A DNA stretch of 64,000 nt from an uncultured Gammaproteobacteria bacterium (GCA_963809565.1 CAWEKE010000001.1:239452-303451); one strand, 5' to 3'. Shown: positions 13,318 through 42,985, counted from the stretch's first letter. The notes: generated by a model not told the origin, from the letters alone. Program-made: numbers and translations.

Positions 13318-14970
13318 TTATCGTTCCCCGGGGGCGTCGCGGCCAGCGCCGGCCGCCGCGGGACGGAATACCGGGTGATCCTCGGGCCAGGCACGTGACG
13401 CCGGCTGCTGCCGGCGATAGGCCTCGAGCAACCGTTGGGCCTCCCGGGCCTGCTCCTCGCCCTCGGCTGCAGAGGCCTGATACACACGGGTCTGCATTTG
13501 CACCGCTTGCTGCCAGCGGCCGTTGGCCGCCAGAGCCATGGCCAGGGTTTCGGCATGAGCATAATCGGGTCGTGCCCGGAATATCGTGTTAGCGTATTCC
13601 AGGGCCAGGCGCAGGCGCTCCGCCGTGGCACCAGGGCAGCTCGCGTAGCTGCGCGCCAGGGCCTGCATGACTTCCCCGCTGCCAGGCTGAGCCTCCAGCG
13701 CGCTTTCGAACGCATCCAGGGCGCGCGGACAGTTGCCCGAGGCCAGCGCCGCGAGCCCGGCACGATAGGCGAAGATCGCGACCTGCTCCGGAGGCGGCAC
13801 GGCTGCAGCATAGACCGCCAGGGCCTCTTCGTAGCGTTTCATGCGCATCAGCGCATTACCCAGACGCAGACTCGCCAGCGAGTAGCCGGGATCAGCGCTC
13901 AGCGCGGCGCGATAGTCGTCGACGGCGCCCGCCTCATCACCGAGTTCCTCGCGTATCGCGCCCCGCCGGTATCTGGCCGGACCGAAATCCGGATCGATCT
14001 CGAGTGCCCGCTCAAACTCCGCCAGCGCGGCTGCGCTCTGGCCGGTCTGGAGCAGTCCCTGACCGAGACTGACTCGCGCTGCCGCATCGTCGGGGTTGTA
14101 TTCCACGGCGCGCTGGAACTCCATTACCGCTTCGTCCTCGCGGCCGGCACGTGACGCGGCGTAACCGCGCTCCAGATAATATTGGGCGCTGCGTGAACGA
14201 GCGGCCATATCCGCCAGGATGGGATCGGCCACTGCAGGATCGGTGCTGCCCTTGAGCAGCAAATTGCGCTGCGCCTGCTCCACCTGGCCTTGCTGTCGGT
14301 AAGCCATGGCCAGCGGATAACGCAGCCGGTCAGCGCCCGGATCGGCGGTCAGCGCCTGTTCGAAGAAGCTGATCGCCTGCAGGTATTCGCCACGTTCGAG
14401 CGCCACCTGGCCGAGACCCGCCAGCGCCGCCGGCTGGCCCGGTCGGGCCTCCAGCACGGCGGTGAAATCCACTTGCGCGGCATCCAGCTGGCGCCGCTTT
14501 AACTGCACCTGGGCCCGTCGCAGCAAGCCTGGCAGATAAGCCGGATCGAGTCTCAACGCGATTTCGTAGTTCTCCAGCGCCGCGTCAAGCTCGCCGGTCT
14601 CCTGATACAGATAGCCGAGCAGATAGCGCCAGCGGAACTCCTCCGGCTGGTACTTTGCTGCCACGAGATAGCACTGACGGGCCAGCGACTGCAGATGATG
14701 AGCCTGATAAGTCATGCCCAGCTCGCCCCATGCCGCGCCGGTGTTTGCCGGGTCCGCAATGCTGCTGCGGAAGTCCGTGAGCGCCTGAGCCAAAGCCTGC
14801 CGCACACCAGGCTCAAAATCCTCCAGTGCCGGGGCTGGCGGCGCAGCGGGATCAGCCGCGCTCGCCGCGGCGCTCGCTGCGGCACCGGCCGCCAGGCAAA
14901 GCCAGGCGAGGAAAAGCACTGCGCCAGGCTGGCGCAGGCGCCGCGCGGACGGACAGGCCGGCCGGTTCAT
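13318..14970 (-). CDS. secreted TPR-repeat protein with no catalytic domain
   Basis: N-terminal signal peptide (LFLAWLCLAAGAAASAAASA) followed by TPR-like repeats throughout. ATG overlaps the upstream stop (ATGA at 14967-14970). Confidence 0.85.
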   Translation of the reverse strand: MNRPACPSARRLRQPGAVLFLAWLCLAAGAAASAAASAADPAAPPAPALEDFEPGVRQALAQALTDFRSSIADPANTGAAWGELGMTYQAHHLQSLARQCYLVAAKYQPEEFRWRYLLGYLYQETGELDAALENYEIALRLDPAYLPGLLRRAQVQLKRRQLDAAQVDFTAVLEARPGQPAALAGLGQVALERGEYLQAISFFEQALTADPGADRLRYPLAMAYRQQGQVEQAQRNLLLKGSTDPAVADPILADMAARSRSAQYYLERGYAASRAGREDEAVMEFQRAVEYNPDDAAARVSLGQGLLQTGQSAAALAEFERALEIDPDFGPARYRRGAIREELGDEAGAVDDYRAALSADPGYSLASLRLGNALMRMKRYEEALAVYAAAVPPPEQVAIFAYRAGLAALASGNCPRALDAFESALEAQPGSGEVMQALARSYASCPGATAERLRLALEYANTIFRARPDYAHAETLAMALAANGRWQQAVQMQTRVYQASAAEGEEQAREAQRLLEAYRRQQPASRAWPEDHPVFRPAAAGAGRDAPGER

Positions 14971-16757
14971 CGCTGCCCGGCGATGCTCACGCCCTCGCCT
15001 TGGCGCAGCGTGTGATAACGACTTGTCGCCAATTGCGGAAAGCGCTCCTCGGTCCCGTCAGGCCAGACAATATGCACATCGCGCTTACCGCCGGCGGTCC
15101 CCAGGCCAAATAGAACGCGCGGATCGTTGGCCGAGGCATAGCTGCCATCCGCACGCACCCGGCTCCAGCGTCTGGGGTCGGCGATCAATTCAACCCTGGC
15201 GCCGAGCGCATCGCGGCCGCCGCTGGCAGTGATCAGCCTCAGGCCGAGCCACTCATTGCGGTCGCCGACCAGGTTCTGCAGCACACGCGCGGGGCCGGCG
15301 TTGTTGGAGATCAGCACATCCGTATCGCCGTCGTTGTCGAGGTCGCCGAACGCGGCGCCGCGACTTACCCGCAACGCCTGAAATGCCGGCCCGGCGCTGG
15401 CGCTGACGTCCGCGTAACGGCCATCGCCGAGATTGTGAAACAGCTGATTGGCTTGCCGTAATGGCAGCAGTTCATCCGCCAGCATCTGCTCTTCGATCGC
15501 AGTGACGGCGCCATTGACTACCAGTAAATCCAGCCAGCCGTCGTTGTCATAGTCGATCCAGCCGGTACCAAACCCCGTCGAGGCAAAGCTGGGGCCCGCC
15601 AGACCCATGGCTACGGTCCGGTCCTGGAACCAGCCGTTGCCGTCATTCACGTACAGGGTATTGGTCTCGCGCGCCAGATGAGTCATGAACAGATCTTCGT
15701 CACCGTCGCCGTCAAAATCCGCAGCATCGACGCCCATGCTGGCTTCCGGACTGCCATCCATGTTGACGCTGACACCGGCAAGGACCGCATCGTTGATGAA
15801 CCGTCCATGCTGGTCGTTGATCCAGAGCTGGTTGGGTACGCCGTCATTGGCAACATAAATATCCGGCCAGCCGTCACCATTAAAGTCCGCGGCGATGACG
15901 CCGAGCGCGCCGCCGAAATCGCCACGGATGCCGACCTTGAGGCTGACATCTTCGAACGTCCCGTCGCCGCGATTACGAAACAGGCTGTCTGGCAGCGGTT
16001 CATAGACCAGCGGTGAACAGTAGTCCCGGGCGCTGGTGGATGAGCGGCAGGGCTTGGCATTGGCCAGGGAGAAATCCACGTAATTACCGACATAGAGATC
16101 GAGCCAGCCGTCTCGGTCATAGTCCAGCCAGGCCGCGCTGACGCTCCAGCGCGGGTCGTCGACCCCGGCTTTTGCAGTCACGTCAACGAAACGGCCATTG
16201 CCGGCATTGCGCCATAGCTGATTGGAGCCAAAGTTGGTCACATACAGATCGGGGCGACCATCGTTGTCATAGTCAGCCACCGTCACGCCCATGCCGTAAC
16301 CAGTCGCGTTCAGACCGGATTGTGCGGTGACGTCGACAAACTTCAGCTGCCCGTCTGCGCTGTCGTTACGGTACAGCCGGTCGGTCAGCGGCAATGGATG
16401 GCGCGGTTTGAACGTCGCCTCGCTGAGCGGCTTGTCGCCCAGCATGTGACCCTGGACCAGATAGAGATCCAGATCGCCGTCCCCGTCGTAGTCGAGCAAT
16501 CCGGCACCCGAGCCCATCATCTCGGTGAAATAGAGCTCCCCGCTCATGCCATTGAAGTGTTCAAACTCGAGACCGGAGGCCTCGGTGACATCAGCGAAAA
16601 TCGGCTCCGCGCGGACCGCGGCCGATACCAGCAACAGCCCTCCGAAAAGCGCTATCGCGCAGCGGGTGGCGGGCCTGCCTGTGCGCCTGAACGGCTTGTG
16701 AAACAAGGACTTTGACATCGACAATTGCGCTGACTTCGGGGCGCGAAAGCATACCAC
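14967..16757 (-). CDS. CRTAC1-family protein (FG-GAP/VCBS repeats + ASPIC/UnbV domain), secreted
   Basis: Signal-like N-terminus (AIALFGGLLLVSAAVRA). Repeated Ca-binding FG-GAP loops: LDYDGDGDLDLYLV, ADYDNDGRPDLYVT, LDYDRDGWLDLYVG, ADFNGDGWPDIYVA, ADFDGDGDEDLFMT, IDYDNDGWLDLLVV, GDLDNDGDTDVLIS. C-terminal UnbV/ASPIC-like segment (GARVELIAD..YASANDPRVLFGLG..VHIVWPDGTEERF). The maximal ORF starts at GTG 16757; ATG 16718 (MSKSLFHK..) is a plausible alternative. Confidence 0.85.
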   Translation of the reverse strand: MVCFRAPKSAQLSMSKSLFHKPFRRTGRPATRCAIALFGGLLLVSAAVRAEPIFADVTEASGLEFEHFNGMSGELYFTEMMGSGAGLLDYDGDGDLDLYLVQGHMLGDKPLSEATFKPRHPLPLTDRLYRNDSADGQLKFVDVTAQSGLNATGYGMGVTVADYDNDGRPDLYVTNFGSNQLWRNAGNGRFVDVTAKAGVDDPRWSVSAAWLDYDRDGWLDLYVGNYVDFSLANAKPCRSSTSARDYCSPLVYEPLPDSLFRNRGDGTFEDVSLKVGIRGDFGGALGVIAADFNGDGWPDIYVANDGVPNQLWINDQHGRFINDAVLAGVSVNMDGSPEASMGVDAADFDGDGDEDLFMTHLARETNTLYVNDGNGWFQDRTVAMGLAGPSFASTGFGTGWIDYDNDGWLDLLVVNGAVTAIEEQMLADELLPLRQANQLFHNLGDGRYADVSASAGPAFQALRVSRGAAFGDLDNDGDTDVLISNNAGPARVLQNLVGDRNEWLGLRLITASGGRDALGARVELIADPRRWSRVRADGSYASANDPRVLFGLGTAGGKRDVHIVWPDGTEERFPQLATSRYHTLRQGEGVSIAGQR

Positions 16758-16792
16758 GGCAGACGCTGCCGGCTGTGCTAACCTGCCCGCTC

Positions 16793-17887
16793 ATGAACGG
16801 TCCACATCCGGACTCCATGCCGCCTGGTCAGATGCCGGGCGACCTGCTGCGCGATCTCGCCGACGATCCCGCGTGGTTTCTGCGCGACGTCGACCCGATT
16901 CGTGGCCAGGCGATATTTTCGCCGATGGACGAAGCCAGTTATCAGGCCTCGATCTTCCTCGACAACCGCATCCAACGCGCCGGACCGCGCGACCTCGTGG
17001 TGGACCTGGACGGGCTGCTGCGCCTGGCCCACAAGCTGAATCTGCCGCCGCGCCCGATCCACTATATTTTCCACATCGGGCACTGCGGGTCGACCCTGAT
17101 ATCCACCATCCTCGGCGGGCTCGACGGTTTTCTTGCCTTGCGCGAACCACCGATGCTGATGGGGCTCTCTCGCAGCATGCGCCATCTGGATCAAACCGGG
17201 TTCCCGATCTCCCGCGAGCGCTGGGAGCAACTGTCGCAACTGGCGCTGAGGCTGCTGGGCAGGACCTGGCGGCCGACGCAAACCGTGCTGGTCAAGCCCA
17301 CCAGCCACGCCGGAAACCTGATTCCGCTGTTGATGGGTTTCACCGGGCGGGAACGGGCCCTGCTCCTGCACGTTGGCCCGGAGACGTATCTGACGACCAT
17401 GCTGCGCGCGGAAGTGCGGCGGGAGACGATGCTGTTCGCGAGAGACTTCCGGCTACGCGACTTCGTCACCTTGATGCCGGAAATGCCAGACTCGGTCGAG
17501 GCCTATCGGCCCGGGGAGCTGGCCGCGATGAGCTGGCTGTTGCACGCGCGCGAGCTGGCCGCCGTGATGGAGGCCGGCGCCTTGCACGAGCGCACGCTGG
17601 GACTGGACTTCGATCGCTTTCTCGCGGATCCGGAGCCATCGCTGCGACAAGTGTGTGAGTTCTTCTCGCAGCCCGCTGACGACGCAACATTGCAACGACT
17701 CCTCGCGATTCACGGCAGGCGCAGCGCCAAGGACCCCGGACGCAGTTATGACCACGCCCGGCGGCAGGCCGATCTGGGTGCGGCCAGCAAGACGTACGCG
17801 GAGGAAATCAGCGCCGGGCTGCGCTGGGCTGAACGGATCCAGACTCAGGGTGGTCCGTTCAGCAGGCTGCGCGAGCGCCTGGGCTAG
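16793..17887 (+). CDS. hypothetical protein, possibly a divergent sulfotransferase-like / P-loop-like protein
   Basis: The only recognisable element is IHYIFHIGHCGSTLISTILGG..LREPP, which resembles a PAPS 5'-PSB loop (h-h-G-x-x-R/C-S/G-G-S/T-T-L). I see no clear 3'-PB motif. Start chosen at ATG 16793 to avoid overlapping the divergent gene. Confidence 0.4.
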   Translation: MNGPHPDSMPPGQMPGDLLRDLADDPAWFLRDVDPIRGQAIFSPMDEASYQASIFLDNRIQRAGPRDLVVDLDGLLRLAHKLNLPPRPIHYIFHIGHCGSTLISTILGGLDGFLALREPPMLMGLSRSMRHLDQTGFPISRERWEQLSQLALRLLGRTWRPTQTVLVKPTSHAGNLIPLLMGFTGRERALLLHVGPETYLTTMLRAEVRRETMLFARDFRLRDFVTLMPEMPDSVEAYRPGELAAMSWLLHARELAAVMEAGALHERTLGLDFDRFLADPEPSLRQVCEFFSQPADDATLQRLLAIHGRRSAKDPGRSYDHARRQADLGAASKTYAEEISAGLRWAERIQTQGGPFSRLRERLG

Positions 17888-17924
17888 CGCGATGCGCGCG
17901 ACAGGGCTGAAACAGCCTTGACGA

Positions 17925-19733
17925 TCAGACCAGGCCGTGGCTCCAGGGCTCGTTCAGGGCCTCGGCCAGCGGCTGCAGCCAACGCGAATAATTGCGCCAG
18001 CGGCCGACGCTGCTGGTGTAGATCGGCTGCCGTACCTGTTCGAAGCTGGCCGTGCGCACCAGCCGCGTGCTGCGATGGAAGTCGAGGCAGGCCTGATCCC
18101 ATGGCAGACCGTTGAACTCGATCAGGGCTCGGGCCTCGCGTGCCGGGTCTTCGATCAGTCGTTCGTAATCCAGCACGTAAATCGGGAGTGAAAGATGTTG
18201 CTGCCAGTGCTCCATCAGCCGCCAGCAACCCTGCTGCTGCAGGCCGATGTGGCGCAGGTCGCGCGCGAAATCCATGCCTTCGCTGCGAAAGTTCTGCTGG
18301 AAACAGGACAAACCGGTGTCCATCGGGTCACGCCGGCAATAGACCACCCGCGCACCCGGCAGCAGGACCTGGATCAGGCCGAGATTCAGGTAGTTGGCCG
18401 GCAACTTGTCGGTTATCCGCGCTGGCCCGCGATCCCAGCCCGGAGCGGTCCGCAGATACTCATTGGCCAGCCGTTCGAGCACCCCGGCTTCGACATGCTG
18501 CAGGCACTCCGGCCAGCGCGTGGCCACGTCGCCTTGGCTTAACCGGCGGGGCAAACGGTAAATATCCGTACGCTCGCCGCCGGCCCGGACCTGCGGATGA
18601 CTGGCCAATATCTGCTCCGCGAGCGACGTCCCCGAGCGGGGCATGCCGACAATGAACACCGGCGCCATCGAATCGACCCCGGATGACGGCATCTGCTGCA
18701 GCCGTTCAGCGGTAAAGAAGGCACACAGTCGTTCAACCGTCGTCCGGAAACCCTCCGGATCAAAACGGCTGGGCAGACAGTCGTTGGCGCGAACGAATTG
18801 CTCGAACGCTCCCGCGTAATCGCCGCTGGCGTCGAGCACCTCACCGAGGGTTGCGCTGATCGTTGCGCGGTCCTGATCGGAAGCATGGGTAGCGTCAAAC
18901 CGCTGCAGCAGCGCTTTGGCTTCGTCGCAACGATCCAGGCGGCGCAGCATCCTTCCGGCGGTAATCACTGCCCACGCGGGCGGCGCGGATGCCAGAACCG
19001 GCTTCAGCAGCTCCAGCACGGCTGCGTATTCGCGCTGTAATTCCAGGGTCCAGATCAGGCCGTGATGCGCCACTTCGTGGGTCGGATCGGACTCCAGCAC
19101 CTCGCGGAAGCAATCCGCGGCGGCAGCCTGATCGTCAAGCCGATGATAGACAAGGCCGAGCGCTGCGCGCGCATCATGATTATCCGGCGCACGCCCGATG
19201 CAACTCAGATAAGTTGCCCGGGCCTGCTCGAGGCAACCCTGTCCGCGCAATGCGTCTGCGTATTCGCGCAGGACTTCCGGATCTTCCGGCATGGCCTTGA
19301 GGACTGGCTCGAGCAGCTCGCCGGCCTCCTCCGCCCGACCCTGCAACAAGTATATTGTCGCCAGCAAACGCCGGCCGCGATGCGCCCGGGCCGAGCCCGC
19401 CGAGACCACAGCCATCGCCTGGCGACAGGCTCCGGCAGCATCTTCCAGCTTGCCCAGAGTGCGCTGCACGTGGGCCAGATTAAGCCATGGGTCGGGTGTA
19501 TCGGGATCCAGCTTCACCGCGGTAAGCAGCGCACGCTCTGCGTCCGGCAAGCGGCCGAGATTATTCAGCGCGCGGCCCAGCGCATTCCATGCCGATGCCA
19601 TCGCCGGGGCTGCCAACACCAGTTGCTGCAGGAGTTTTTCCGCCGCCGCCGGATCACGCTGCCGGATCAGCGCCTCCGCCTGGCTTAACTGTTCGGCCGC
19701 CGCCACGGTCGGTGCTCCATCGCCGTTGCTCAT
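17925..19733 (-). CDS. TPR repeat + TPST-like sulfotransferase fusion (ST8)
   Basis: 602 aa with TPRs. Motifs: FIVGMPRSGTSLAEQILASHPQVRAGGE, RVVYCRRDPMDTGLSCFQQNF, GLPWDQACLDFH, SFEQVRQPIYTSSVGRWRNY. Confidence 0.9.
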   Translation of the reverse strand: MSNGDGAPTVAAAEQLSQAEALIRQRDPAAAEKLLQQLVLAAPAMASAWNALGRALNNLGRLPDAERALLTAVKLDPDTPDPWLNLAHVQRTLGKLEDAAGACRQAMAVVSAGSARAHRGRRLLATIYLLQGRAEEAGELLEPVLKAMPEDPEVLREYADALRGQGCLEQARATYLSCIGRAPDNHDARAALGLVYHRLDDQAAAADCFREVLESDPTHEVAHHGLIWTLELQREYAAVLELLKPVLASAPPAWAVITAGRMLRRLDRCDEAKALLQRFDATHASDQDRATISATLGEVLDASGDYAGAFEQFVRANDCLPSRFDPEGFRTTVERLCAFFTAERLQQMPSSGVDSMAPVFIVGMPRSGTSLAEQILASHPQVRAGGERTDIYRLPRRLSQGDVATRWPECLQHVEAGVLERLANEYLRTAPGWDRGPARITDKLPANYLNLGLIQVLLPGARVVYCRRDPMDTGLSCFQQNFRSEGMDFARDLRHIGLQQQGCWRLMEHWQQHLSLPIYVLDYERLIEDPAREARALIEFNGLPWDQACLDFHRSTRLVRTASFEQVRQPIYTSSVGRWRNYSRWLQPLAEALNEPWSHGLV

Positions 19734-19814
19734 CGGATGCTGCTCGTCAGATCCGGCGCCCGACGATGCTCATGCCGGGCCAGGTCAACCGGGACTCATG
19801 GTTTGCCGACCCAT

Positions 19815-20432
19815 TCATCGCAGGGGATAAGAGAAGCGGAAATCGTCGTCAGGATCGCGGAAATTCACGTAGCTGGTAAGAATGTACTTGTCCCCGGATA
19901 CCGGCGCCTCGCCGACATGCTCATACATCCAGTAGGGAGGCATGATCACCAGCCTTCCGGTGCGCGCTGCGACCCGGGTCCCCAATATCGGAAACACCGT
20001 TTCACCGCCCTCATCCACGGTATTCAGGTACCACAAAAAGGCCACGGTTCGCACCGCAGACCGGTGATCGAACACATCCACATGCAACGGGAAGTGGTGC
20101 GGCTCATCACCGCCGGCCAGGTACTTCTTGACCTTCAGATGTTCAAACGCCCGCGGCGCCTTGCGCGCCAGCATTCCGGCTACCGGCAAGGTCGCGTACT
20201 CGGCCAGGTGGCGCACCATGTTTTCGATCAGCGCGCGCTCGACTTCACGCCATTTCGGATTCGGGTTGCGGGTGATCACATACTCGACCCAGGTTCGCTG
20301 CCGGGCGCGCTGGAACTGTTCAGCCGGATCGGCTTCGACCTGCTCGATAATGCGGGCGCACAGCTCCGGATCCAGCGCATCGTCATAGACCCTGATCAGT
20401 TCCGACAGGCGTGGGTCTGAGCTATCGTTCAT
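19815..20432 (-). CDS. 2OG-Fe(II) oxygenase, prolyl-4-hydroxylase-like (P4Hc type)
   Basis: Motifs HHFPLHVDVF (HxD), RTVAFLWYLNTVDEGGETVFP, ARTGRLVIMPP...YEHVGEAPVSGDKYILTSYVNF (distal His, G.KY..t.w). This is the classical P4H-type jelly-roll signature. Its start overlaps the ST9 stop by 11 nt. Confidence 0.85.
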   Translation of the reverse strand: MNDSSDPRLSELIRVYDDALDPELCARIIEQVEADPAEQFQRARQRTWVEYVITRNPNPKWREVERALIENMVRHLAEYATLPVAGMLARKAPRAFEHLKVKKYLAGGDEPHHFPLHVDVFDHRSAVRTVAFLWYLNTVDEGGETVFPILGTRVAARTGRLVIMPPYWMYEHVGEAPVSGDKYILTSYVNFRDPDDDFRFSYPLR

Positions 20433-22551
20433 AGCCGAAGTACTCGAGGTGGGGATCGAGAGCCGGCATCAGCGGCTCCATATAGTGAGCATATGCCTGC
20501 CACCGGCCTCGGGAGCGCTGGTAGAGCGCCTCGGTCACCTGATGATAACTGTTGGTATTGATGTGGCCACGCTGGCGTGCGCGCTCGGCATAGTCCAGGA
20601 CTCGGGGGTCCCACTCCAGACCGAGGAAGTCGAGCAGCTTGCGCGTCTCCGCTTCCAGGTCATCAATCAGGGACTCATAGCGCACCACGTGGACGTTCAG
20701 CGGCAGGCGCCGGTTGTATAACTGCCACAGGCGCATGGTCTTGTCGTAGATACGGGTCGAATCCTCCAGCGTATGGAAATTCGCGAAGGCGTCGCTGACC
20801 GTATAGTGCTGCATGAAGTTTGACAGCACCACATCGCAGGGATGGCGTTGGCAGAAGACGAAGCGCGCGTCCGGAAACAGACGCCAGAGCATCCCGACCT
20901 GAATGGTGCGGATCGGCATCTTGTCGACAATCAACGTGTCCGCGTGGCCAGCCATGAACGGATCGATTGCATCGAAATACAGCTTCCTCAGCCGGGCGAA
21001 CGTCTGCTCATCAAGCTGCGCCAGCGCGCGCGGGAAACCATCTGGCAACTCCTGCAGAGCCTCCAGCGCGGGCAGGATGGTGACCTGCTCTTCTACAGTG
21101 GTGATGCCCGGGTGACTATCGAGAACGACATCCGTCAGCGTCGTGCCCGAACGCGGGAATCCGAGCATGAACACCGGCGACGGGCGCTCGCAGCGCGGGG
21201 CCTCGGTCCACTCTTCCAGGCGGGTCGTGCTGAAAAACTCGTCCAATTCGTCAAGCAGGGCCAGAAACCGCTCCGGTCTTGCCTCCCGGGCCCGGGGGGT
21301 CGCCCGCGCCAGTTCATTGGCCGCGGTGAAATGTTCATAGGCTGCGTCCGCATTCCCGTGACGATCGTGCAGGTAACCAAGCTGGTAATGGAATTGCTCC
21401 GCCAGACGCGGATCCATCTTCGTGGTGTCGAAGCGCATCAGGCGCTGTAACCCCAGAGTCGGTTCACCGCGGCGACGATCGCCCTTGGCCGCTTCCAGAT
21501 TCAGTCGCGGGTGATCCGGCGCCAGTTGCAGGCCCTTTTCCACCATCTGATCAAGCTCTTCGAGCCTGTTTGCTTCCTCGTACAGCGCGGCCAGTTCTGC
21601 GTAGGCCGCGGGCGAGTGAGGGTCGAGTTCCAGCGCCCGCTTGAAGCTGGCCTCGGCCTCATCGCTGCGGCGCTGCTCATTGAGCACCAGGCCCAGGTTC
21701 AGGTGGACCGATGCATTGTCCGGATCCAGCTGCAGCGCGTGGCGGTAACAGATAGCGGACTTCTTGAAGTTGCGCCGCGTGTGATACGCAATACCCAGGT
21801 TGATCAGCGTTTCGGTGTGGCCGGGCTTAAGGCTCAGCGCATGCTCAAATTGCGCGATAGCTGCATCCACGTCGCCCTGACTCATCAGTACCGTGGCCAG
21901 ATTTCGCCTGGCTGAAGCGAAATCCGGGTCGATGGCCACCGCATGTTCAAACGCATCCCGGGCCTCGTCGAGTTCACCCATCGCGCGCAGGGCATGACCG
22001 AGGTGATCATAGGCAACCGCAAACTCCGGCCGGATCAAAACCGCGCGCCGGAACGCATCCGCCGCTTCCGCCAGACGCCCCATGTTGTTAAACGCGCGGC
22101 CAAGATTGTCATAGGCGCCCGCCAGATTGGGGTTGATTTCCAGCGCCTTGACGAAAAACGGAATCGCCTCCTCCGGTTTGCCCTGCCGCAGCAGGGTTTC
22201 ACCGAGATTGCTGTGCGCCATCGCGAACTCGGGCTGCAGCTGGATCGTCTGCTGATACATCGCCGCGGCGTCGTCCAGTCTGTCCCGCGCCTTCATCAGA
22301 TTACCCAGGCTGTTGATAAAGCTGGCTTTTAACGGATCGAGCTGGATCGCGCGCCGGATCAGTCGCTCGGCGTCTTCCAGCCGTCCCTGGCGGGCGTCGA
22401 TATTGCCCAGGCAATGCAGGGCATCCGCATGCGCCGGTTCGCGCTTGAGCACCTCCAGATACTGGGCCTTGGCCGACTCCAGATCACCCTCATGCTGGGT
22501 CTGCTGGGCCTGATGATAAAGCTCTGCCGTAGATAGGGACTGAGCAGCCAT
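20422..22551 (-). CDS. TPR repeat + TPST-like sulfotransferase fusion (ST9)
   Basis: Long TPR N-terminus. Motifs: FMLGFPRSGTTLTDVVLDSHPGITTVEE, RFVFCQRHPCDVVLSNFMQHY, GLEWDPRVLDY, SYHQVTEALYQRSRGRWQAY. Start chosen at ATG 22551 (GGAG about 12 nt upstream); the maximal ORF reaches 22608. Confidence 0.85.
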   Translation of the reverse strand: MAAQSLSTAELYHQAQQTQHEGDLESAKAQYLEVLKREPAHADALHCLGNIDARQGRLEDAERLIRRAIQLDPLKASFINSLGNLMKARDRLDDAAAMYQQTIQLQPEFAMAHSNLGETLLRQGKPEEAIPFFVKALEINPNLAGAYDNLGRAFNNMGRLAEAADAFRRAVLIRPEFAVAYDHLGHALRAMGELDEARDAFEHAVAIDPDFASARRNLATVLMSQGDVDAAIAQFEHALSLKPGHTETLINLGIAYHTRRNFKKSAICYRHALQLDPDNASVHLNLGLVLNEQRRSDEAEASFKRALELDPHSPAAYAELAALYEEANRLEELDQMVEKGLQLAPDHPRLNLEAAKGDRRRGEPTLGLQRLMRFDTTKMDPRLAEQFHYQLGYLHDRHGNADAAYEHFTAANELARATPRAREARPERFLALLDELDEFFSTTRLEEWTEAPRCERPSPVFMLGFPRSGTTLTDVVLDSHPGITTVEEQVTILPALEALQELPDGFPRALAQLDEQTFARLRKLYFDAIDPFMAGHADTLIVDKMPIRTIQVGMLWRLFPDARFVFCQRHPCDVVLSNFMQHYTVSDAFANFHTLEDSTRIYDKTMRLWQLYNRRLPLNVHVVRYESLIDDLEAETRKLLDFLGLEWDPRVLDYAERARQRGHINTNSYHQVTEALYQRSRGRWQAYAHYMEPLMPALDPHLEYFGYER

Positions 22552-22771
22552 AAGTGTTTGATTCTCCGCCTGATGCAGGCAAAACATATAATTATCCCCT
22601 TTTGCCACGCAGGCGCAAGAAAGGCCGGTGGACCGCAGCGGGACCGTCGTAACGGAACGTATCCGGCGAATCAGGGGTCGGGAAATCCAGCATGGCGGGT
22701 GACATCGGGCCCATGGGCGCGGTGCCCCGATTCTGCTACCGTGACGCGCAGTCGAAGTTCAGGACAACCGG

Positions 22772-23368
22772 ATGAGCAGAACCAAAATCTTCGTTTGCCT
22801 GGCAATCCTGCTGGGCGCGGCCCCGATCCAGGCGGCCGAGGAATCCGATTCGGCGGCGTCCGCCTTTATCAAATGCGCCCGCATTGCCAGCGATGGCCAG
22901 CGCCTGCTGTGCTATGACCGGCTGGCAACAGAGTTGATCGAGCTCGGGCTGAACAGCCGGGGTGGCCTCCCCACCGCTCAGCCGCTCCCGCAGGCGTCAA
23001 CGGCGGGGGCGACGGAGACGGCGACAGCAGACACCGGCTCGCCATCCGTACAGACACCGGCCGCGGACCAGCCGGCGCCTGAAGCCACCGCTGCTGTATC
23101 TCCGGTCGACAAGTTTGGCGCCGAACGGGTGGAGGATGAGACCAATCTGAAGAAGATCCAGAGTCGTTTTGTCGGCGACTTCACCGGTTGGGATGGCAAG
23201 ACGGTTTTCGAACTCGAGAACGGCCAGGTCTGGCAGCAAGCCGAGTCCGGTCGTTTCACTTATCGCGCGGTGAATCCGATGATCACGATCAAGCGCGGGT
23301 TTCTTGGTAGTTATATCCTGACCGTGGATGACATGAATACCACCGTGCGGGTTAAACGCATCAAGTAA
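22772..23368 (+). CDS. secreted hypothetical protein with a Pro/Ala/Thr-rich linker
   Basis: Signal peptide MSRTKIFVCLAILLGAAPIQA, a small Cys-containing N-domain, a low-complexity linker (TAQPLPQASTAGATETATADTGSPSVQTPAADQPAPEATAAVSP), and a C-terminal beta-rich domain. No family recognised. Confidence 0.7.
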   Translation: MSRTKIFVCLAILLGAAPIQAAEESDSAASAFIKCARIASDGQRLLCYDRLATELIELGLNSRGGLPTAQPLPQASTAGATETATADTGSPSVQTPAADQPAPEATAAVSPVDKFGAERVEDETNLKKIQSRFVGDFTGWDGKTVFELENGQVWQQAESGRFTYRAVNPMITIKRGFLGSYILTVDDMNTTVRVKRIK

Positions 23369-23371
23369 AGC

Positions 23372-23839
23372 TCAGCTGTCGGCCACCAGCGGACCTTCGG
23401 TGAGCTCCCAGATTTCTTCCCGCTCTACCAGGCCATAGAGCCCTTCTGCCTGACCGCGCAGGCCGGCCGCCACCTTCTGCCAGTCCACATCATCACCCGG
23501 CGATGCGTCGCCTTTGGAGCCGAGCTGTTCGAGGCGGGCGCTTTGCAGCTGCCATTTCATTACGAAATGACGCGCAGCGTCGCGCGCGGTATCCGCGACT
23601 TCCATATCGACATGATCCGAAGGGATATCTACCCCTGAAATCACCCAGTAGGCGCGGTTCCTGTTTGCCTGAGACCAGGCCTTGCCGATGAACAACTGGT
23701 GCGGCAGTGTCCACACGGCATGGCCGACGACTTCATCCTGGATCAGGTCGCTGTTGCGAACATGTTGCGCCATGTTCTGTAACTGTCCCTTTGCCCATTC
23801 GGCATAGGCCTGCAATTCCTGTTCGTTCCTGAATGCCAT
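23372..23839 (-). CDS. conserved hypothetical cytoplasmic protein (possibly DUF4826-like)
   Basis: 155-aa ORF with coding-like composition and no signal peptide. The family assignment is from memory only and is weak. Confidence 0.55.
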   Translation of the reverse strand: MAFRNEQELQAYAEWAKGQLQNMAQHVRNSDLIQDEVVGHAVWTLPHQLFIGKAWSQANRNRAYWVISGVDIPSDHVDMEVADTARDAARHFVMKWQLQSARLEQLGSKGDASPGDDVDWQKVAAGLRGQAEGLYGLVEREEIWELTEGPLVADS

Positions 23840-23860: not shown

Positions 23861-25549
23861 TTACTGCCCAGCCTGGTCTGCTGGCCTGGCCCCGTCTGCC
23901 ATCGGCGTGAGGACAGGCGGCGGACCCTGCACCGGCCGCGGCTTGAATACCTCGGCGTCGGGGCTCCAGGCCTGCCGGGCCGGCTTGTTCTCCTGATACA
24001 AAGCCATATTGGTCTGTAGCCATTCCAGGTCTGCATCCTTATCGGTCTTCAGGGCTTCGAAGATAGCCTGCGCCTGAAAATCCACCGCGGCGTTGAACTT
24101 GCCATTGGCCGCCGAGGCCATCGCCAGGGTCTCCGCGTTGCGCATGCTCGGGTTCTTCAGATACAGCGCAGTCGCGGTCTCCAATGCCTGAATCTTCTGC
24201 TCGTCGGTACTGTCATCACAGATTGCAAATGCCCTGGTCGCGGCCACCACCATCTGCTCATCACCGGGGCTCAGTTTCAGACCCCTGGCCAGAACAGGAT
24301 GCGCCCACTGGCAATCGCCGGATGCCAGCCACGCCATACCCAGCAGATAGGTCACCTCTGCATTTGTCGGCAGCACATGCGCGATCTGTCCGTAGTTCTC
24401 TCCTGCCTCGGAGAACGCTTTGCGTCGCATCAGGCTGTTGGCCAGCAACAGACGCGGCTCGACCAGCTGGGGCTCCGCCTCCAGCGCCTTGCGATAAGCG
24501 ACCTCGGCCTCGGCGTCATTGCCGGTCTGCTCGAACAGCAAGCCGACGAAATAGTTTGCTTTCGCATTGTCCGGCTCGATGGCCAGCAGCCGCGAGAACG
24601 CGACCATCGCCGCGTCCAGCCGGCCCGTGGCCGCGTTCATCTCGCCGAGGTTCATCAGCGCCTCGATGTTGCCCGGCTGGATCGATGCGGCAAGCTCATA
24701 GGCCTGAATAGCCGCATCCGGGCTGTTGTATTGCCTTGCCTGGGCCGCCGCTGCCATATAGCGGTCAAAGTCTCCCGTATGCGAGCGAACAAACGTCATC
24801 AGCGGATCGTCAACGCGCGGTTTGCGATCTCCCGATTTGGCCTGCTCGCTTGCCGCCTTGCTGTCTTCGCCCATCGCCCGATACACCGCCGCCAGTTGCC
24901 CGTGGATCGAATTCGCCTCGGGATCGAGATCCAGCGCTTTTTGCAGCGCATCCAGGGCCTCAGCGTATTTACCCTGAAGGAACAGCGCCTGGCCGAGTCC
25001 AGCCAGCGCGGCCGGGTCGTCAGGATTGCGCCGGACGGCAACGAAAAACCCGGTTTCCGCTTCCTCGGGCTGATTCAGCAACAGCTGCATCTGGCTGCGA
25101 TGGATCAGCGCCGGGGTGAAGCTGAAGGCCAGATCCAGTGCATGACCAAAGCTGGCGGCGGCGGCCTCCGGATCACCGGTCTGTTCGTAGTGGATGCCGA
25201 GCAGATAGGGCCACCGTGGATTAGTCGTGTCCAGAGCCATGGCATTGTAGAAACAGGCTCCGGCCGCTGCTTGCTGACCGTTGGCCAGATAATTGATCCC
25301 CATGCGCCCATAGGCCAGTCCCAGCGGGACCCCTTCCAGACTCATGCGCTGATCGCGAAAAAAATCGACCGCCGGCTGCAAGCGCCGGCTGACCTCCGGA
25401 TCAAGCTTCGACAGATCGGGATGAGGCACCAGCTTGAGGTCGGGCAGATTGGCTTCCTGTTGCGCCGACACCTGGGCCAGCGGCGCAATCAGAAGCACCA
25501 GAACCGCGGTCAGCGCCAGGCAAAATGAAGTTCTCAGGGTATTTTTCAT
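23861..25549 (-). CDS. secreted TPR-repeat protein (second copy of this type)
   Basis: Signal peptide (CLALTAVLVLLIAPLAQVSA) followed by TPR repeats throughout. Same architecture as 13318-14970. Confidence 0.85.
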   Translation of the reverse strand: MKNTLRTSFCLALTAVLVLLIAPLAQVSAQQEANLPDLKLVPHPDLSKLDPEVSRRLQPAVDFFRDQRMSLEGVPLGLAYGRMGINYLANGQQAAAGACFYNAMALDTTNPRWPYLLGIHYEQTGDPEAAAASFGHALDLAFSFTPALIHRSQMQLLLNQPEEAETGFFVAVRRNPDDPAALAGLGQALFLQGKYAEALDALQKALDLDPEANSIHGQLAAVYRAMGEDSKAASEQAKSGDRKPRVDDPLMTFVRSHTGDFDRYMAAAAQARQYNSPDAAIQAYELAASIQPGNIEALMNLGEMNAATGRLDAAMVAFSRLLAIEPDNAKANYFVGLLFEQTGNDAEAEVAYRKALEAEPQLVEPRLLLANSLMRRKAFSEAGENYGQIAHVLPTNAEVTYLLGMAWLASGDCQWAHPVLARGLKLSPGDEQMVVAATRAFAICDDSTDEQKIQALETATALYLKNPSMRNAETLAMASAANGKFNAAVDFQAQAIFEALKTDKDADLEWLQTNMALYQENKPARQAWSPDAEVFKPRPVQGPPPVLTPMADGARPADQAGQ

Positions 25550-25690
25550 GAATCTGATTTCCCGTTCCCGGTGTCGGGAACTCCGTCCTCCATTATGGCG
25601 GTTTCGCTCCGCTTACGCAGAATTCATCATCGTGGAAGGATGACCGTGGCGGAATCCGGAACACGCGCTCCCGCAAGACGCGAGAGGGGA

Positions 25691-27574
25691 TCAGGTAGCC
25701 GGACGCCCGCCTCCGGGCGCCGCCTGCTCGATGACCAGTTCCTGGCCTGCCTCGATGCCCTCGAGGACCTGAACAGTCCCGTCTGGCCAGTGGATCTCGA
25801 GCCGCAGCGCCGATTGTGAGTCTCCGAGCCCAAAAGTCTGGACAAGTTCCGTCTGCGACAGATAACTCCGCGCGCTGTTTATCTGGCGCTCCTGAAGCCG
25901 CTCGCCCTCGGCCAGCACCAAGCGCGCACCGACAGCGCCGGTGTTCGGGGCTGTTCCGCGCAAGCGCACACGCAGCCATCGATGTCCCAGCACCTGATCA
26001 TTGCGCAACAGGTGCGGCGCGCCACCGACCTGGGTGATCACCACGTCAAGATCGCCATCGCTATCGATGTCTGCGTAGCTGGCGCCCCGGCCCACCATGG
26101 GTTGCGTCAGATCGCCAGTATTCGCAGCCGGCATTGGAATGAATTGCCGGTCGCAATCATATCCGCAATTCCAGAACAACTGTGCGGACTGGGCATGCTG
26201 CTGGCTGGGTTGAACACGGTTGATCTCATCCTCGACGTGACCGTTGGCCTGCAACAGATCCAGACGTCCGTCCAGATCGGCATCAAACAGGAACAGGCCG
26301 AAACTCAGCACGCTGCGGCTGGCCGGGCCGATACCGGTAACGATGGCTTCATCGTTGAACAACACGCTGCGCGCCGGATCGACAAAAAACGAGGTCATCT
26401 CGTTGGCGAAATTGCCCATCGCCACAGCATATTCGCCCTGATCGCCGATGCGGCCGCCGTCGATACCCATCGCGCCGGTGGCGCTGCCGGTGTTGTCAAA
26501 AGCCAGCCCGGCATTGACGCCCTGCTCCTCGAACTGTCCACCGACGTTGCGAAACAGGAAGTTACGCACGGTGTCGTTGGCCACTACCAGGTCCGTCCAG
26601 CCATCCAGATCCAGGTCCTCGGCCAACACCGCCAGGCCCTTGCCGACCGGGACGCCGGTATCGGCGTTGCGCACATGGATGCCGCTTCCGGCACCAAGCT
26701 CGGTGAATCGACCCTGGCCGTCATTGCGAAACAGATAGCTGTCGGTGCCGGCAAAATTCGTCGGCGGGCCATAGGCACGGCCAATCCCCGCGAGGCGATA
26801 GTCGACCTCGAAATCCAGTTCCCGCGACCACTGCACGTAATTCACCACGAACAGGTCCAGGTCACCGTCCCGGTCGTAATCAAGAAACGCCGCGCTGCTG
26901 CTCCAGGTGTCGGCACCGCCGGCGACGCCGGCTTTCGCGGTCACATCCTCGAAGCGGCCGTCGCCGAGATTCCGCAACAGCCGATTGGGGCCGACCGCGG
27001 TCAGGTAGACATCGACCCGGCCGTCGCCATCATAGTCGCCGGTGGCAATCCCCATCCCGTACAGCGGCTTGTCCAGGCCCGAGCCGGCAGTGACATTCTG
27101 AAATTGTCCCCCGCCGAGATTCCGATACAGCTCGGGCGTCGATGGCCGGTCTGAATCTTCCGACCAGGGCCAGGCAGTCGAGTTGACGAACAACAGATCG
27201 GGCAGATCGTCCTGGTCCAGCGAAAAGAACGCGACGCCACCACCCATGGTCTCGGGCAACAGCCGTTCGCCGGCAGCGCCGCTGTCATGGTGAAAACTGA
27301 TACCCGCAGCGCCGGTGATGTCGGTAAACGGGATCTGCGGAGCGTCCGGCTCAGCCACCGTGACCGCGGGTTTCGACAGGGCCTGCTCGTTCACCGGGGC
27401 CTGTTCGGCGGGCCGGCCGCGCCACCAGAGCATTGCCGATACCAGCGCGATGAAAACGACGATCGCGATCAGCGACCGGCGCAGTGCAACGCCGATGACT
27501 GCGTCATCCTGGACCAGATCCGTTTCCGGGTCCCGGTCATCGGTCAAGGCTGGCTCAACGGGTTCCTGTCTCAA
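25691..27574 (-). CDS. CRTAC1-family protein (FG-GAP/VCBS + ASPIC/UnbV), N-terminally membrane-anchored
   Basis: N-terminal TM segment (LIAIVVFIALVSAMLWW). FG-GAP loops: GDYDGDGRVDVYLT, LDYDRDGDLDLFVV, EDLDLDGWTDLVVA, FDADLDGRLDLLQA, ADIDSDGDLDVVIT. UnbV-like C-terminus (GARLVLAEGERLQERQINSARSYLSQTELVQTFGLG..LEIHWPDGTVQVL). ATG overlaps the upstream stop (27571-27574). Confidence 0.85.
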   Translation of the reverse strand: MRQEPVEPALTDDRDPETDLVQDDAVIGVALRRSLIAIVVFIALVSAMLWWRGRPAEQAPVNEQALSKPAVTVAEPDAPQIPFTDITGAAGISFHHDSGAAGERLLPETMGGGVAFFSLDQDDLPDLLFVNSTAWPWSEDSDRPSTPELYRNLGGGQFQNVTAGSGLDKPLYGMGIATGDYDGDGRVDVYLTAVGPNRLLRNLGDGRFEDVTAKAGVAGGADTWSSSAAFLDYDRDGDLDLFVVNYVQWSRELDFEVDYRLAGIGRAYGPPTNFAGTDSYLFRNDGQGRFTELGAGSGIHVRNADTGVPVGKGLAVLAEDLDLDGWTDLVVANDTVRNFLFRNVGGQFEEQGVNAGLAFDNTGSATGAMGIDGGRIGDQGEYAVAMGNFANEMTSFFVDPARSVLFNDEAIVTGIGPASRSVLSFGLFLFDADLDGRLDLLQANGHVEDEINRVQPSQQHAQSAQLFWNCGYDCDRQFIPMPAANTGDLTQPMVGRGASYADIDSDGDLDVVITQVGGAPHLLRNDQVLGHRWLRVRLRGTAPNTGAVGARLVLAEGERLQERQINSARSYLSQTELVQTFGLGDSQSALRLEIHWPDGTVQVLEGIEAGQELVIEQAAPGGGRPAT

Positions 27575-33300: not shown

Positions 33301-33671
33301 GTGTCGCCCAGATACAGTCGCAGCAGACCGGTAATGTAATTGGCACGCAGATCATCCGGTTCCGCTGCCAGCACCGTGGCAACGATGTCCAGTGCGCGTT
33401 GTTCATCACCCTCCTGCTGGCGATTCAGCGTAGCGATGGCGAGATTAAGACGCGCATCACGCCAGTCCGGATTTCTTTGCGCAACTTGCTCAAACGTATC
33501 TCGGGCCGCCGCATAGTCGAAATTACCCATCAGCGCGACGCCGCGATTATTGGCTGCGATGTCCGCTGCGCTGATGTCGTCATCAGCCCTTTCGCAACCA
33601 GTGCCTGAGAGCAAACTCAGCAGGACCGGTATCGCCCACAGCGGGCCGGACATTCCTCTTGCTGCGGTCAT
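30381..33671 (-). CDS. large secreted (possibly lipoprotein) TPR + FG-GAP/VCBS + UnbV-like protein with a long uncharacterised C-terminal region
   Basis: Signal peptide with a possible lipobox (LLSLLSGTGC). N-terminal TPRs. FG-GAP loops: GDVDNDGDLDLYLC, IDADHDGDLDIFVV, ADLDLDRDLDLIVV, ADLDSDGRPEIYAV, SDFDGDGSLKLVIA. UnbV-like segment (GIGTRVSLRLLDRWTMTTTLDHNSAPGQS). I recognise no family in the final ~450 aa. Confidence 0.8.
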   Translation of the reverse strand: MTAARGMSGPLWAIPVLLSLLSGTGCERADDDISAADIAANNRGVALMGNFDYAAARDTFEQVAQRNPDWRDARLNLAIATLNRQQEGDEQRALDIVATVLAAEPDDLRANYITGLLRLYLGDTAAALEHLNVVTAGDPEDAYAAYFSGQALLQQGDMEGALDWYRRAIDLDPYLRSAYYGAALVLRRTGQPQEARDMLAVYERFADNPRARLAEFKYTKLGPKAEALAVGRERIEPATLPPGPLFAQAVPLAADISGQVLSLTAADIDADTVLDIFAATTVGTRVIIGQADGRFADLADHPLAGIRNATAALWGDVDNDGDLDLYLCRKGPNQLWLGADRGEWRERGADTATDDAGDCVDGGMIDADHDGDLDIFVVNADGPDELFSNNGNGSFRRLGASQGIAGAGAGRQFLAADLDLDRDLDLIVVNEGGGNDIWINDRLWEYRRATGLDSFRQASLQAAAIADLDSDGRPEIYAVDEDGRLLRWSWRPGSWSLDTLDTVAGSKPQLAVSDFDGDGSLKLVIASSAGVSIRHHAGGMLQLQDSAGLTGPLLILNADIQAGPEIVAPTEEALRRWPPGPGRLPFLGLSFSGKEDKADSMRSNRSGIGTRVSLRLLDRWTMTTTLDHNSAPGQSLQPLLMGLAGLPAADYVAIDWSDGVFQTELSLAQGELHRIAETQRQLSSCPVIFAWNGTHYGFVSDVLGVGGLGFLVAPGEYAEPRPWEYFLMPAGSLVPKEGVYALKIAEPMEESAYLDVVRLHGFDLPPGWDMAVDERMATGGPAVTGRPIFFRPERSLSPVSASNAGGEDVLDTVRTADRVAAPVGEVDHRFIGRLQQEHRLLLEFDREINPAGSRPVLVADGWVEYPYSQTVFAAWQAGADYQAPSLDALSVDGVWHRVYTGFGYPAGMPREMALPLGDLPAKTVALRLSTNLEVYWDRIRIVFEEDAPPAMVHQVMTPTAARLAITGFATRTTAAQRVPDYDYQVRDAFWDARYLDGFYTRTGPVEPLLEQADDAVAIIGSGEEVHLEFNAPDAVAHDWTRRFVLEARGWAKDMDLFTRDGGQLGPLPRSALGDDAAEMRREELHQQYNTRYQSAR

Positions 33672-34828: not shown

Positions 34829-34866
34829 CAATGTTTTTTAGTCAGGAACCCCGGGAGACTTCGTCG

Positions 34867-39963: not shown

Positions 39964-40113
39964 GGCTATCCTGACCTTTGCTGTCTGACCGGCATGGGTG
40001 CCGGTTCGCCCGCGGTCCCGGGCCTGAGGGGCCCCCGGATCGCCGGGCGGCAGTGTCGAAAACTGCGTTATTGTCCTCCGTTTGGCCCCTTCAGTAAAAC
40101 TGGCAGGCTAATC

Positions 40114-40800: not shown

Positions 40801-40804
40801 TTGC

Positions 40805-41902: not shown

Positions 41903-41964
41903 AAGTCCTCTCCTGCCTCAGCTCTTGCCTGAGCCCCGGCCTGCGCTACGACCGCATTCAGCGC

Positions 41965-42972: not shown

Positions 42973-42985
42973 GCCTGGTCTCCCT

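Follow-up and report, generated by a model that had tools for sequence, protein, structure and literature searches.

A TPR-fused sulfotransferase and a prolyl 4-hydroxylase-like oxygenase as a recurrent gene pair in uncultured bacteria

Introduction

On what do a sulfotransferase and a small oxygenase act when the end of one gene overlaps the start of the other? The question is raised by a 64,000-nt stretch of DNA from an uncultured Gammaproteobacteria bacterium (GCA_963809565.1, CAWEKE010000001.1:239452-303451), referred to below, at its full length, as the window. Positions 17925 to 22551 hold, on the minus strand, the gene of a prolyl 4-hydroxylase (P4H)-like 2-oxoglutarate (2OG)/Fe(II) oxygenase between two genes for sulfotransferases with tetratricopeptide repeats (TPRs), ST9 upstream and ST8 downstream. 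A first-pass annotation of this DNA had proposed that the three genes form one transcription unit combining hydroxylation and sulfation of proteins or peptides. To our knowledge, RaxST of Xanthomonas is the sole case in which protein tyrosine sulfation has been demonstrated in bacteria, and bacterial protein sulfation is almost unexplored. An ST9-type sulfotransferase and the oxygenase recur as a specific gene pair well beyond this genome. We consider it somewhat probable that the locus is one cytoplasmic operon, in which the ST9-type/oxygenase core acts as a complex on a common extended peptide or protein substrate.

Gene organisation and transcription

The locus comprises the following features.

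20422-22551, minus strand: ST9, 709 aa from an ATG, with TPR repeats and a C-terminal TPST-like sulfotransferase domain
19815-20432, minus strand: oxygenase, 205 aa, a single-domain P4H-clade 2OG/Fe(II) oxygenase
17925-19733, minus strand: ST8, 602 aa, with TPRs and a TPST-like sulfotransferase domain, third gene of the unit
20422-20432, minus strand: overlap of the ST9 stop with the oxygenase ATG, 11 nt, ATGAACGATAG, based on the sequence and on orthologous loci
19734-19814, minus strand: spacer between oxygenase and ST8, 81 nt, scanned for promoters and terminators

ST9 and the oxygenase have 11 nt in common at their junction (TTCGGCTATGAACGATAG), where ST9 ends in the frame TTC GGC TAT GAA CGA TAG and the oxygenase begins in the frame ATG AAC GAT AGC. 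The same architecture, TATGAnnnnT(G/A)(A/G), is found in every ST9-type orthologous locus, which suggests that translation of the oxygenase is coupled to the end of ST9. The length of the spacer to ST8 is not conserved, at 67 nt in the closest relative (L011) and -4 to +29 nt in most others. A promoter and terminator scan of 17600-23500 gave background-level hits only and nothing inside the 81-nt gap, a result that shows no more than the lack of an obvious break. The conserved 11-nt overlap, the shrunken downstream gap in relatives and a gap free of promoter- or terminator-like sites make it likely that ST9, the oxygenase and ST8 belong to a single transcription unit, in agreement with the first-pass annotation. 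Its placement of the three genes on the minus strand, with an 11-nt overlap and an 81-nt gap, is borne out by the list of open reading frames (ORFs) and by the sequence.

An alternative GTG start of ST9, 57 nt upstream at 22608, is open too (ORF 20422-22608); the 709-aa ATG version has the length of most orthologues. Inspection of the intergenic sequence revealed no conserved small ORF between the ST9, oxygenase and ST8 genes, and neither Rfam (at gathering thresholds) nor a tRNA scan produced a match anywhere in the window. Read by eye, the N-termini of ST8, ST9 and the oxygenase lack an obvious signal peptide.

The oxygenase

Judged by its sequence, catalytic residues and modelled fold, the 205-aa protein is a P4H-clade 2OG/Fe(II) oxygenase. 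The P4H-type signature described in the first-pass annotation is present, with H117-V-D119, GGETVFP at 142-148 and H172-VGEAPVSGD-K182-Y, and Pfam PF13640 (2OG-FeII_Oxy_3), the family it had pointed to, matches with 34.9 bits against a cut-off of 27 (E=3.1e-8). The orthologue group is sharply bounded. Among 5.8 billion proteins it comprises 50 clusters with 50-99% identity, nearly all of 197-211 aa, and beyond a gap in identity follow hundreds of relatives at ~40%. In a library of 1.84 billion representatives the whole group is one 50%-identity cluster, and the family counts 626 representatives at E<=1e-10. Forty columns, including all four catalytic residues, are invariant in an alignment of 21 sequences (the window oxygenase and 20 clusters). 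The ORF is not a chance one, because these 50 orthologue clusters and 40 invariant columns exist. The HxD...H triad and the 2OG-binding Lys (H117, D119, H172, K182) are invariant in the 21 orthologues and in 63 wider homologues, and R128, Y135-L136-N137, G142-G143, T145 and W168-M169 are also invariant in the alignments. The enzyme is thus intact and under constraint.

The AlphaFold2 model of the oxygenase is confident (predicted local distance difference test, pLDDT, 89.2; predicted template modelling score 0.88). Searching the PDB with this model returned prolyl 4-hydroxylases only among the top 50 matches, with E down to 4.8e-11, TM-scores of 0.55-0.66 and 17-24% identity. They include PBCV-1 vCPH (5c5t), Chlamydomonas P4H (2jig/3gze), B. 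anthracis P4H (3itq/5hv0), P. putida PPHD (4j25), PHD1/2 and human C-P4H-II (7zsc). A sequence-profile search recovered the same P4H set together with P4H-TM and the lysyl hydroxylase LH3, with B. anthracis P4H at 1.3e-12 and its Lys aligned with K182. The double-stranded beta-helix, the HxD...H triad and PF13640 are common to these P4Hs and the window enzyme, and in both a Lys rather than an Arg binds the C5 carboxylate of 2OG. In contrast to collagen-type and bacterial P4Hs, the window oxygenase has no peptide-substrate-binding domain. NCBIfam contains no family for the oxygenase.

The sulfotransferases

Both sulfotransferases combine Pfam TPR families with PF13469 (Sulfotransfer_3; E=1.8e-37 in ST8 and 9.6e-35 in ST9). 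Seven more TPR-sulfotransferase genes lie at 118-13297. Six of them run head-to-tail on the minus strand and one lies on the plus strand; overlaps of 4-90 nt are seen for several, and PAPS-binding and catalytic motifs are intact in all. Across the TPR-sulfotransferases of the window, PF13469 E-values range from 1e-33 to 1e-47. Altogether the window contains 12 sulfotransferase-fold genes, nine of the TPR type, one encoding a stand-alone 391-aa protein and two of the Sulfotransfer_1 family.

The catalytic domains are, by sequence comparison, closer to tyrosylprotein sulfotransferases (TPSTs) than to other sulfotransferase classes. The best PDB sequence matches of the ST9 domain are TPST1 (5.5e-13) and TPST2 (5.2e-11), and the best solved-structure relative of the ST8 domain is TPST2 (1.8e-9). 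A profile built from all nine domains matched human TPST1/2 at E=6e-24 to 8e-22, followed by the polyketide sulfotransferases OLS (1e-11) and CurM (6.5e-11) and by cytosolic SULTs at 6e-8 or worse. The motifs expected of TPST-like enzymes are present, namely the loop binding the 5'-phosphosulfate of 3'-phosphoadenosine 5'-phosphosulfate (PAPS; PRSGT) and the 3'-phosphate motif (RxxPxDxxxS). All nine domains keep the PR(S/A)G loop and the RxxxD motif, with G14, P16, R17, G19, R119 and D123 as invariant alignment positions. A Glu (E38 of the alignment) is likewise invariant in the nine. In the alignment of ST8 with TPST2, the 'GGERT' Glu falls opposite the second Glu in the 'GEET' of TPST2. A DK(M/L)P Lys is found in 7/9 domains, including ST8 and ST9. 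We take this Glu and Lys to be the equivalents of the TPST2 catalytic residues Glu99 and K158. The window enzymes differ from TPSTs in the long N-terminal TPR arrays fused to them and, for ST8 and ST9, in the absence of an obvious signal peptide.

Conservation of the ST9-type/oxygenase pair

A scan of 185,579 species genomes yielded only 11 orthologous loci, plus three distant ones. All 11 are metagenome-assembled genomes (MAGs) of uncultured Gammaproteobacteria, except one labelled Phycisphaerae. A search for a cultured host of the pair returned a MAG with every match, and all relatives considered here come from metagenomes or MAGs. ORFs of the fetched loci were labelled by single-sequence phmmer or blastp against the window proteins, a procedure that may miss weak relatives. 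In the neighbourhoods sampled around orthologues 52-66% identical, the end of a TPR-sulfotransferase gene always lies over the oxygenase start and a second TPR-sulfotransferase gene always follows. Wherever the sequence permits checking, orthologous loci contain orthologues of both ST9 and ST8 as well as the 11-nt overlap, apart from L004, which has its sulfotransferase paralogues in a different order, and L018, which is uninformative upstream of the oxygenase due to a 100-N assembly gap. The locus labelled 'Phycisphaerae bacterium SG8_4' (L021, LJTR01000038.1) shows full gammaproteobacterial-type synteny, and its proteins score against the window like those of L009 and L010, within 1-2 bits and ~1% identity. 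This label probably stems from erroneous binning of the MAG.

Across loci, the divergence of ST9 keeps pace with that of the oxygenase, with identities of 85/85, 76/78, 74/76, 59/57 and 56/52%, respectively, ST9 orthologues thus spanning 56-85%. ST8 orthologues diverge faster, from 74 down to 40% identity, and ST8 is absent or replaced in distant clusters. From these sequence comparisons, we read the ST9-type/oxygenase pair as the conserved unit, old and co-evolving, and ST8 as a lineage-specific addition. The three-gene sandwich put forward in the first-pass annotation is therefore not upheld as the conserved unit. Its proposal also depended on co-conservation of the oxygenase with TPR-sulfotransferases in other genomes, which clearly exists and extends down to oxygenases of ~40% identity.

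Around these ~40%-identical oxygenases, a TPR-sulfotransferase is adjacent in 5/9 contexts first sampled (L008, L026-L029). The adjacent enzyme is always of the ST9 type, with 153-171 bits to ST9 and <=122 bits to the other window paralogues. Five contexts with DNA and no adjacent TPR-sulfotransferase (L006, L007, L022-L024) carry a Sel1- or TPR-fused oxygenase in that place. The small oxygenase is hence accompanied by a solenoid-repeat partner in both situations, a TPR-sulfotransferase in the window and a repeat-fused oxygenase in some relatives. The distant co-conservation spans soil, freshwater and marine metagenomes. A wider metagenome scan gave 80 loci, many of them short fragments, which divide into 29 low-GC and 51 high-GC bacterial loci. 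An ST9-type sulfotransferase touches the oxygenase gene in 35/51 high-GC loci. Among well-flanked bacterial loci (>=1.5 kb on both sides) it is directly adjacent in 23/29, a count that includes L056, which a distance threshold had missed and inspection by eye confirmed. Two of the remaining six have an ST9-type enzyme elsewhere in the locus, and 3/4 of the others have a different sulfotransferase type.

Distant clusters and the metabolite alternative

The usual gene order in distant clusters is TonB-dependent receptor, ST9-type TPR-sulfotransferase, oxygenase, TPR-Asp/Asn-hydroxylase and a cupin-Sulfotransfer_3 fusion, followed by a methyltransferase and small genes. This organisation raises the alternative that the pair tailors a small or peptide-derived metabolite (siderophore-like, lipid or glycan), which would be made in the cytoplasm and then exported or re-imported, with the TPRs only assembling the enzyme complex. 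We regard this alternative as serious, if on balance unlikely. In most of the distant clusters the ST9-type/oxygenase pair adjoins a TonB-dependent receptor. As many as four oxygenases, together with a methyltransferase and two or three sulfotransferases, occur there, as is typical of natural-product tailoring. Siderophore-like products have been proposed for TonB-receptor-linked dioxygenase clusters by Iyer, Abhiman, de Souza and Aravind 2010 (PMC2938197). The second-best sulfotransferase matches, CurM and OLS, would also suit a metabolite.

The window itself points the other way. Pfam scans covered all but four of the window ORFs of >=250 aa that are not shadows of a longer ORF, and they found no nonribosomal peptide synthetase (NRPS), polyketide synthase, NRPS-independent siderophore (NIS) synthetase, exporter or maturation gene of ribosomally synthesised and post-translationally modified peptides (RiPPs). 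The same scans found neither a TonB-dependent receptor nor a second oxygenase, so that the window is unlike the multi-oxygenase clusters in which the distant homologues lie. TPST is ahead of all small-molecule sulfotransferases by at least 12 orders of magnitude in E-value, and the top PDB fold matches of the oxygenase all act on polypeptides.

Two small genes accompany the TonB-receptor-type clusters of L026 and L027. One encodes a ~235-aa protein without a Pfam match (L026 1091-1786, plus strand; L027 1047-1778, plus strand), with an N-terminal 'LHKSGGTF' loop resembling the PAPS-binding loop of sulfotransferases. Beside it lies a gene for a 120-128-aa lipoprotein with an Ala/Pro-rich linker.

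Fusion proteins and reaction order

The fusion polypeptide of the distant clusters is ~600 aa long and joins an N-terminal Asp/Asn-beta-hydroxylase-like cupin to a C-terminal Sulfotransfer_3 domain in Pfam (e.g. L026 2916-4709, minus strand). Soil and freshwater bacterial contigs repeatedly encode it, two genes away from the oxygenase homologue (L026, L027, L052, L055, L057, L059, L060, L065, L073, L077, L087, L096, L105, L108). As Rosetta stone proteins, such hydroxylase::sulfotransferase fusions show functional coupling of the two activities, not the order of reactions.

A sequential mechanism would have the oxygenase create a hydroxyl (hydroxyproline, hydroxy-Asp/Asn or hydroxy-Lys) and ST9 and/or ST8 sulfate the same residue, a possibility raised in the first-pass annotation that we judge improbable. 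The gene order and coupling are compatible with it, the fusions in sister clusters could reflect it, and CurM-type relatives sulfate aliphatic hydroxyls. The same reaction order was predicted for other bacterial dioxygenase/sulfotransferase operons (PMC2938197). A prior hydroxylation is nevertheless unnecessary because the TPST-like catalytic set and similarity point to tyrosine, an acceptor that requires no earlier hydroxylation. Moreover, the seven other TPR-sulfotransferases of the window have no oxygenase partner, which indicates that the class is not generally hydroxylase-dependent.

Phage homologues and a possible regulatory role

The 29 low-GC metagenome loci contain no sulfotransferase, and the two that were tested are fragments of T4-like cyanophages. 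In a tblastn search, 429 phage records, mostly cyanomyophages, encode an oxygenase of the T4-GC_240 type (e.g. S-MbCM100 gp157) with ~37% identity over 90% and the same single-domain form of ~190-200 aa. These cyanomyophage and marine-virus proteins are the best structural matches of the window oxygenase and differ from it in their genomic context, as detailed below. In Synechococcus phage S-MbCM100 (L025, 135981-136604), L049 and L071, the T4-GC_240 gene lies in the DNA replication and recombination module, where it directly follows UvsX and precedes genes for a 461-aa hypothetical protein and MazG.

Phage copies that function without any sulfotransferase could also speak for the oxygenase as a regulator, which would hydroxylate ST9, ST8 or a housekeeping protein, as EF-Tu P4Hs do, and tie sulfation to the supply of oxygen, iron or 2OG. 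Structural neighbours include the EF-Tu-binding or -modifying PPHD and B. anthracis P4H as well as the oxygen sensor PHD2. Yet the strict pairing with one sulfotransferase subtype and the parallel divergence fit a shared substrate or complex more simply, and nothing specific indicates regulation. We hold a regulatory role to be very improbable.

A proposed shared polypeptide substrate

The core of the locus would be an old, co-inherited pair. One member would be a TPR-fused, TPST-like enzyme, the other a minimal P4H-clade hydroxylase with its translation tied to the ST9 end. Translational coupling, divergence at matching rates and the repeated finding of a solenoid-repeat enzyme beside a domain-less oxygenase lead us to infer that ST9 and the oxygenase act on the same substrate, probably as a physical complex. 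The oxygenase has no surface for recruiting a substrate, and the TPR solenoid of ST9 would provide one. Repeat arrays with a recruiting role are known from collagen P4H, in its TPR-like peptide-binding domain, and from AspH, in its TPR region. TPR arrays suggest binding of a protein or peptide, and the most economical acceptor, given the affinities to TPSTs and P4Hs, is an extended polypeptide. The acceptor is plausibly a peptide or protein. Two modifications might be placed on the extended segment, an O-sulfate donated by PAPS, for which tyrosine is the simplest site, and a hydroxyl derived from O2 and 2OG, on the side chain of proline or of another residue. Further sulfates may be added by ST8 and by the stand-alone sulfotransferase next to it in this lineage, where the pair is most likely joined by these two genes, by the array of paralogous TPR-sulfotransferases and by genes for FG-GAP/ASPIC proteins with TPR partners.

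Several observations weigh against a shared polypeptide substrate. Identity of the oxygenase to characterised P4Hs is low (17-24%), and predicted structures of uncharacterised viral 2OG oxygenases from giant viruses and cyanophages fit it better (TM 0.75-0.83). In phages, the copies are flanked by UvsX and a hypothetical gene within a DNA-replication module, and no sulfotransferase is nearby. CurM and OLS, which follow directly after TPST among the sulfotransferase matches, sulfate the aliphatic beta-hydroxyl of a carrier-bound acyl chain. The top 150 oxygenase representatives include seven clearly longer proteins (250-942 aa), which match PF13640 only and show no fusion to a sulfotransferase or TPR. 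Finally, no substrate gene common to all cluster types was found in the contexts compared. The exported 198-aa protein encoded upstream of ST9 occurs in this lineage only, as do the FG-GAP/ASPIC proteins, apart from two loci elsewhere, and distant clusters carry a TonB-dependent receptor instead. The absence of a shared substrate gene would be expected no less for a metabolite or for a target whose gene lies elsewhere.

A more specific version of the polypeptide reading holds that a two-enzyme bacterial cytoplasmic complex writes sulfotyrosine and a hydroxylated residue on ribosomal proteins or peptides. The nine paralogues would then provide combinatorial sulfation, and FG-GAP/ASPIC proteins or the Ala/Pro-linker protein could be targets. 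We consider this version doubtful. A functional analogy exists in the plant PSY and RGF peptide hormones, where TPST-made sulfotyrosine and P4H-made hydroxyproline occur on one short peptide. The analogy concerns function only, as the plant hormones are made by a eukaryotic Golgi pathway with an unrelated gene organisation.

Relation to known systems

The general idea of a dioxygenase-sulfotransferase linkage is already published, because Iyer et al. (PMC2938197) described bacterial neighbourhoods joining 2OG dioxygenases with P-loop sulfotransferases, noted that sulfotransferases of this type are also fused to dioxygenases and proposed hydroxylation followed by sulfation. That concept applies to the window locus. 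They also linked phage-type oxygenases like Syn9-gp52/gp54 to clusters with TonB receptors and sulfotransferases. The operons presented there encode beta-hydroxylase- or PhyH-family oxygenases, collagen-like or tail-collar substrates and PAPS synthetase. Pfam scans of the large window ORFs found no collagen-like, tail-collar or PAPS-synthetase gene. The part of that paper drawn on here gives neither a pair of an ST9-type TPR-sulfotransferase with a small PF13640 oxygenase nor a nine-gene TPR-sulfotransferase array. TPR-fused sulfotransferases are annotated in large numbers. Our literature search found this one relevant paper and retrieved no study of TPR-fused sulfotransferases, no ST9-type/PF13640 pair and no experimental substrate.

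The RaxST/RaxX system includes a precursor-peptide gene and a RaxB/RaxA exporter. Neither a raxX-like precursor nor a RaxB-type peptidase-exporter, an ABC transporter or a C39 peptidase was found by the scans of the large window ORFs, and the TPST likeness of the window enzymes rests on human TPST1/2, not on RaxST. The locus is thus not assignable to RaxX/RaxB, RiPP, NRPS, collagen-like or tail-collar systems, since such genes were not found in the window. An oxidative desulfation role for the oxygenase, like that of the 2OG-dependent alkylsulfatase AtsK, was rejected because AtsK belongs to the TauD family and not to the P4H clade.

In a comparative genomics study of Pontixanthobacter (PMC10040529), one table lists lasso-peptide B2, a sulfotransferase, an aspartyl beta-hydroxylase, a sulfotransferase-domain protein, PqqD and an asparagine-synthase-related protein under nearly consecutive cluster numbers. 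The table suggests that some lasso-peptide gene clusters combine sulfation and hydroxylation as tailoring reactions.

Neighbouring genes

Three neighbours flank the unit.

16712-17887, plus strand: stand-alone sulfotransferase-fold protein, 391 aa, divergent, convergent to ST8, with a weak PF13469 match
22772-23368, plus strand: exported protein, 198 aa, divergently transcribed, with a signal peptide, a CA.I..D..RL.CYD motif and a conserved C-terminal domain
23372-23839, minus strand: DUF4826 protein (PF16108, E=2.3e-22), a syntenic neighbour

NCBIfam has no family for any of the three. Many homologues of the 391-aa protein match PF13469, its AlphaFold2 model has a pLDDT of 89.6 and its top 50 fold matches are all sulfotransferases. 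The gene is conserved beside ST8 in most orthologous loci. The 198-aa gene is found in orthologous loci whose sequence extends upstream of ST9 and is absent from distant clusters. An alignment of 11 orthologues shows its Ala/Pro/Thr linker to be variable. The 198-aa protein was set aside as substrate and is speculation only in that role, given its lineage-only occurrence, its non-conserved linker and its export, as opposed to cytoplasmic-looking enzymes.

The regions 13318-16757 and 23861-33671 hold repeated pairs of exported FG-GAP/ASPIC (CRTAC1-like) proteins and TPR-only partners, and alongside these a 937-aa protein with a cytochrome c554-like region and TPRs and a 1096-aa TPR and FG-GAP protein. 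All orthologous loci keep these genes in synteny with the sulfotransferase array. The distant oxygenase clusters L023 and L076 also have an ASPIC-like gene beside them, in L023 with a TPR partner. Acidic DYDxDG loops had made FG-GAP/ASPIC proteins candidate substrates. Such loops are generic FG-GAP calcium-binding loops and hence no evidence.

Farther along, two non-TPR Sulfotransfer_1 genes at 39010-43978 surround an ELM1-like gene and adjoin a gene for a lipid A biosynthesis acyltransferase, and they may constitute a locus of their own for the sulfation of lipopolysaccharide or of a different envelope glycolipid. A 245-aa protein (34831-35568, plus strand) has a long Lys/Ala-rich C-terminal tail with KKAAKKK repeats, like histone H1 or AlgP, and its gene explains a local GC dip and strong AT skew. 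A 739-aa fusion (35661-37880, minus strand) combines a patatin-like phospholipase domain with an Omp85 domain.

Significance

The ST9-type TPR-sulfotransferase and the P4H-like oxygenase form a specific, recurrent and apparently translationally coupled pair, and as two genes, or three with ST8, they offer a compact clonable unit. The pair makes polypeptide sulfation and hydroxylation, recognition by TPR arrays and the likely role of the abundant cyanophage oxygenase homologues accessible to testing. If the acceptor is a metabolite, the pair would belong to an unrecognised class of sulfated, hydroxylated natural products tied to TonB-dependent uptake. A protein acceptor would extend the post-translational chemistry known from bacteria. 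Should the two-enzyme reading of protein modification be true, the pair would be a prokaryotic counterpart of the eukaryotic TPST and P4H toolkit, and bacterial tyrosine sulfation would be widespread.

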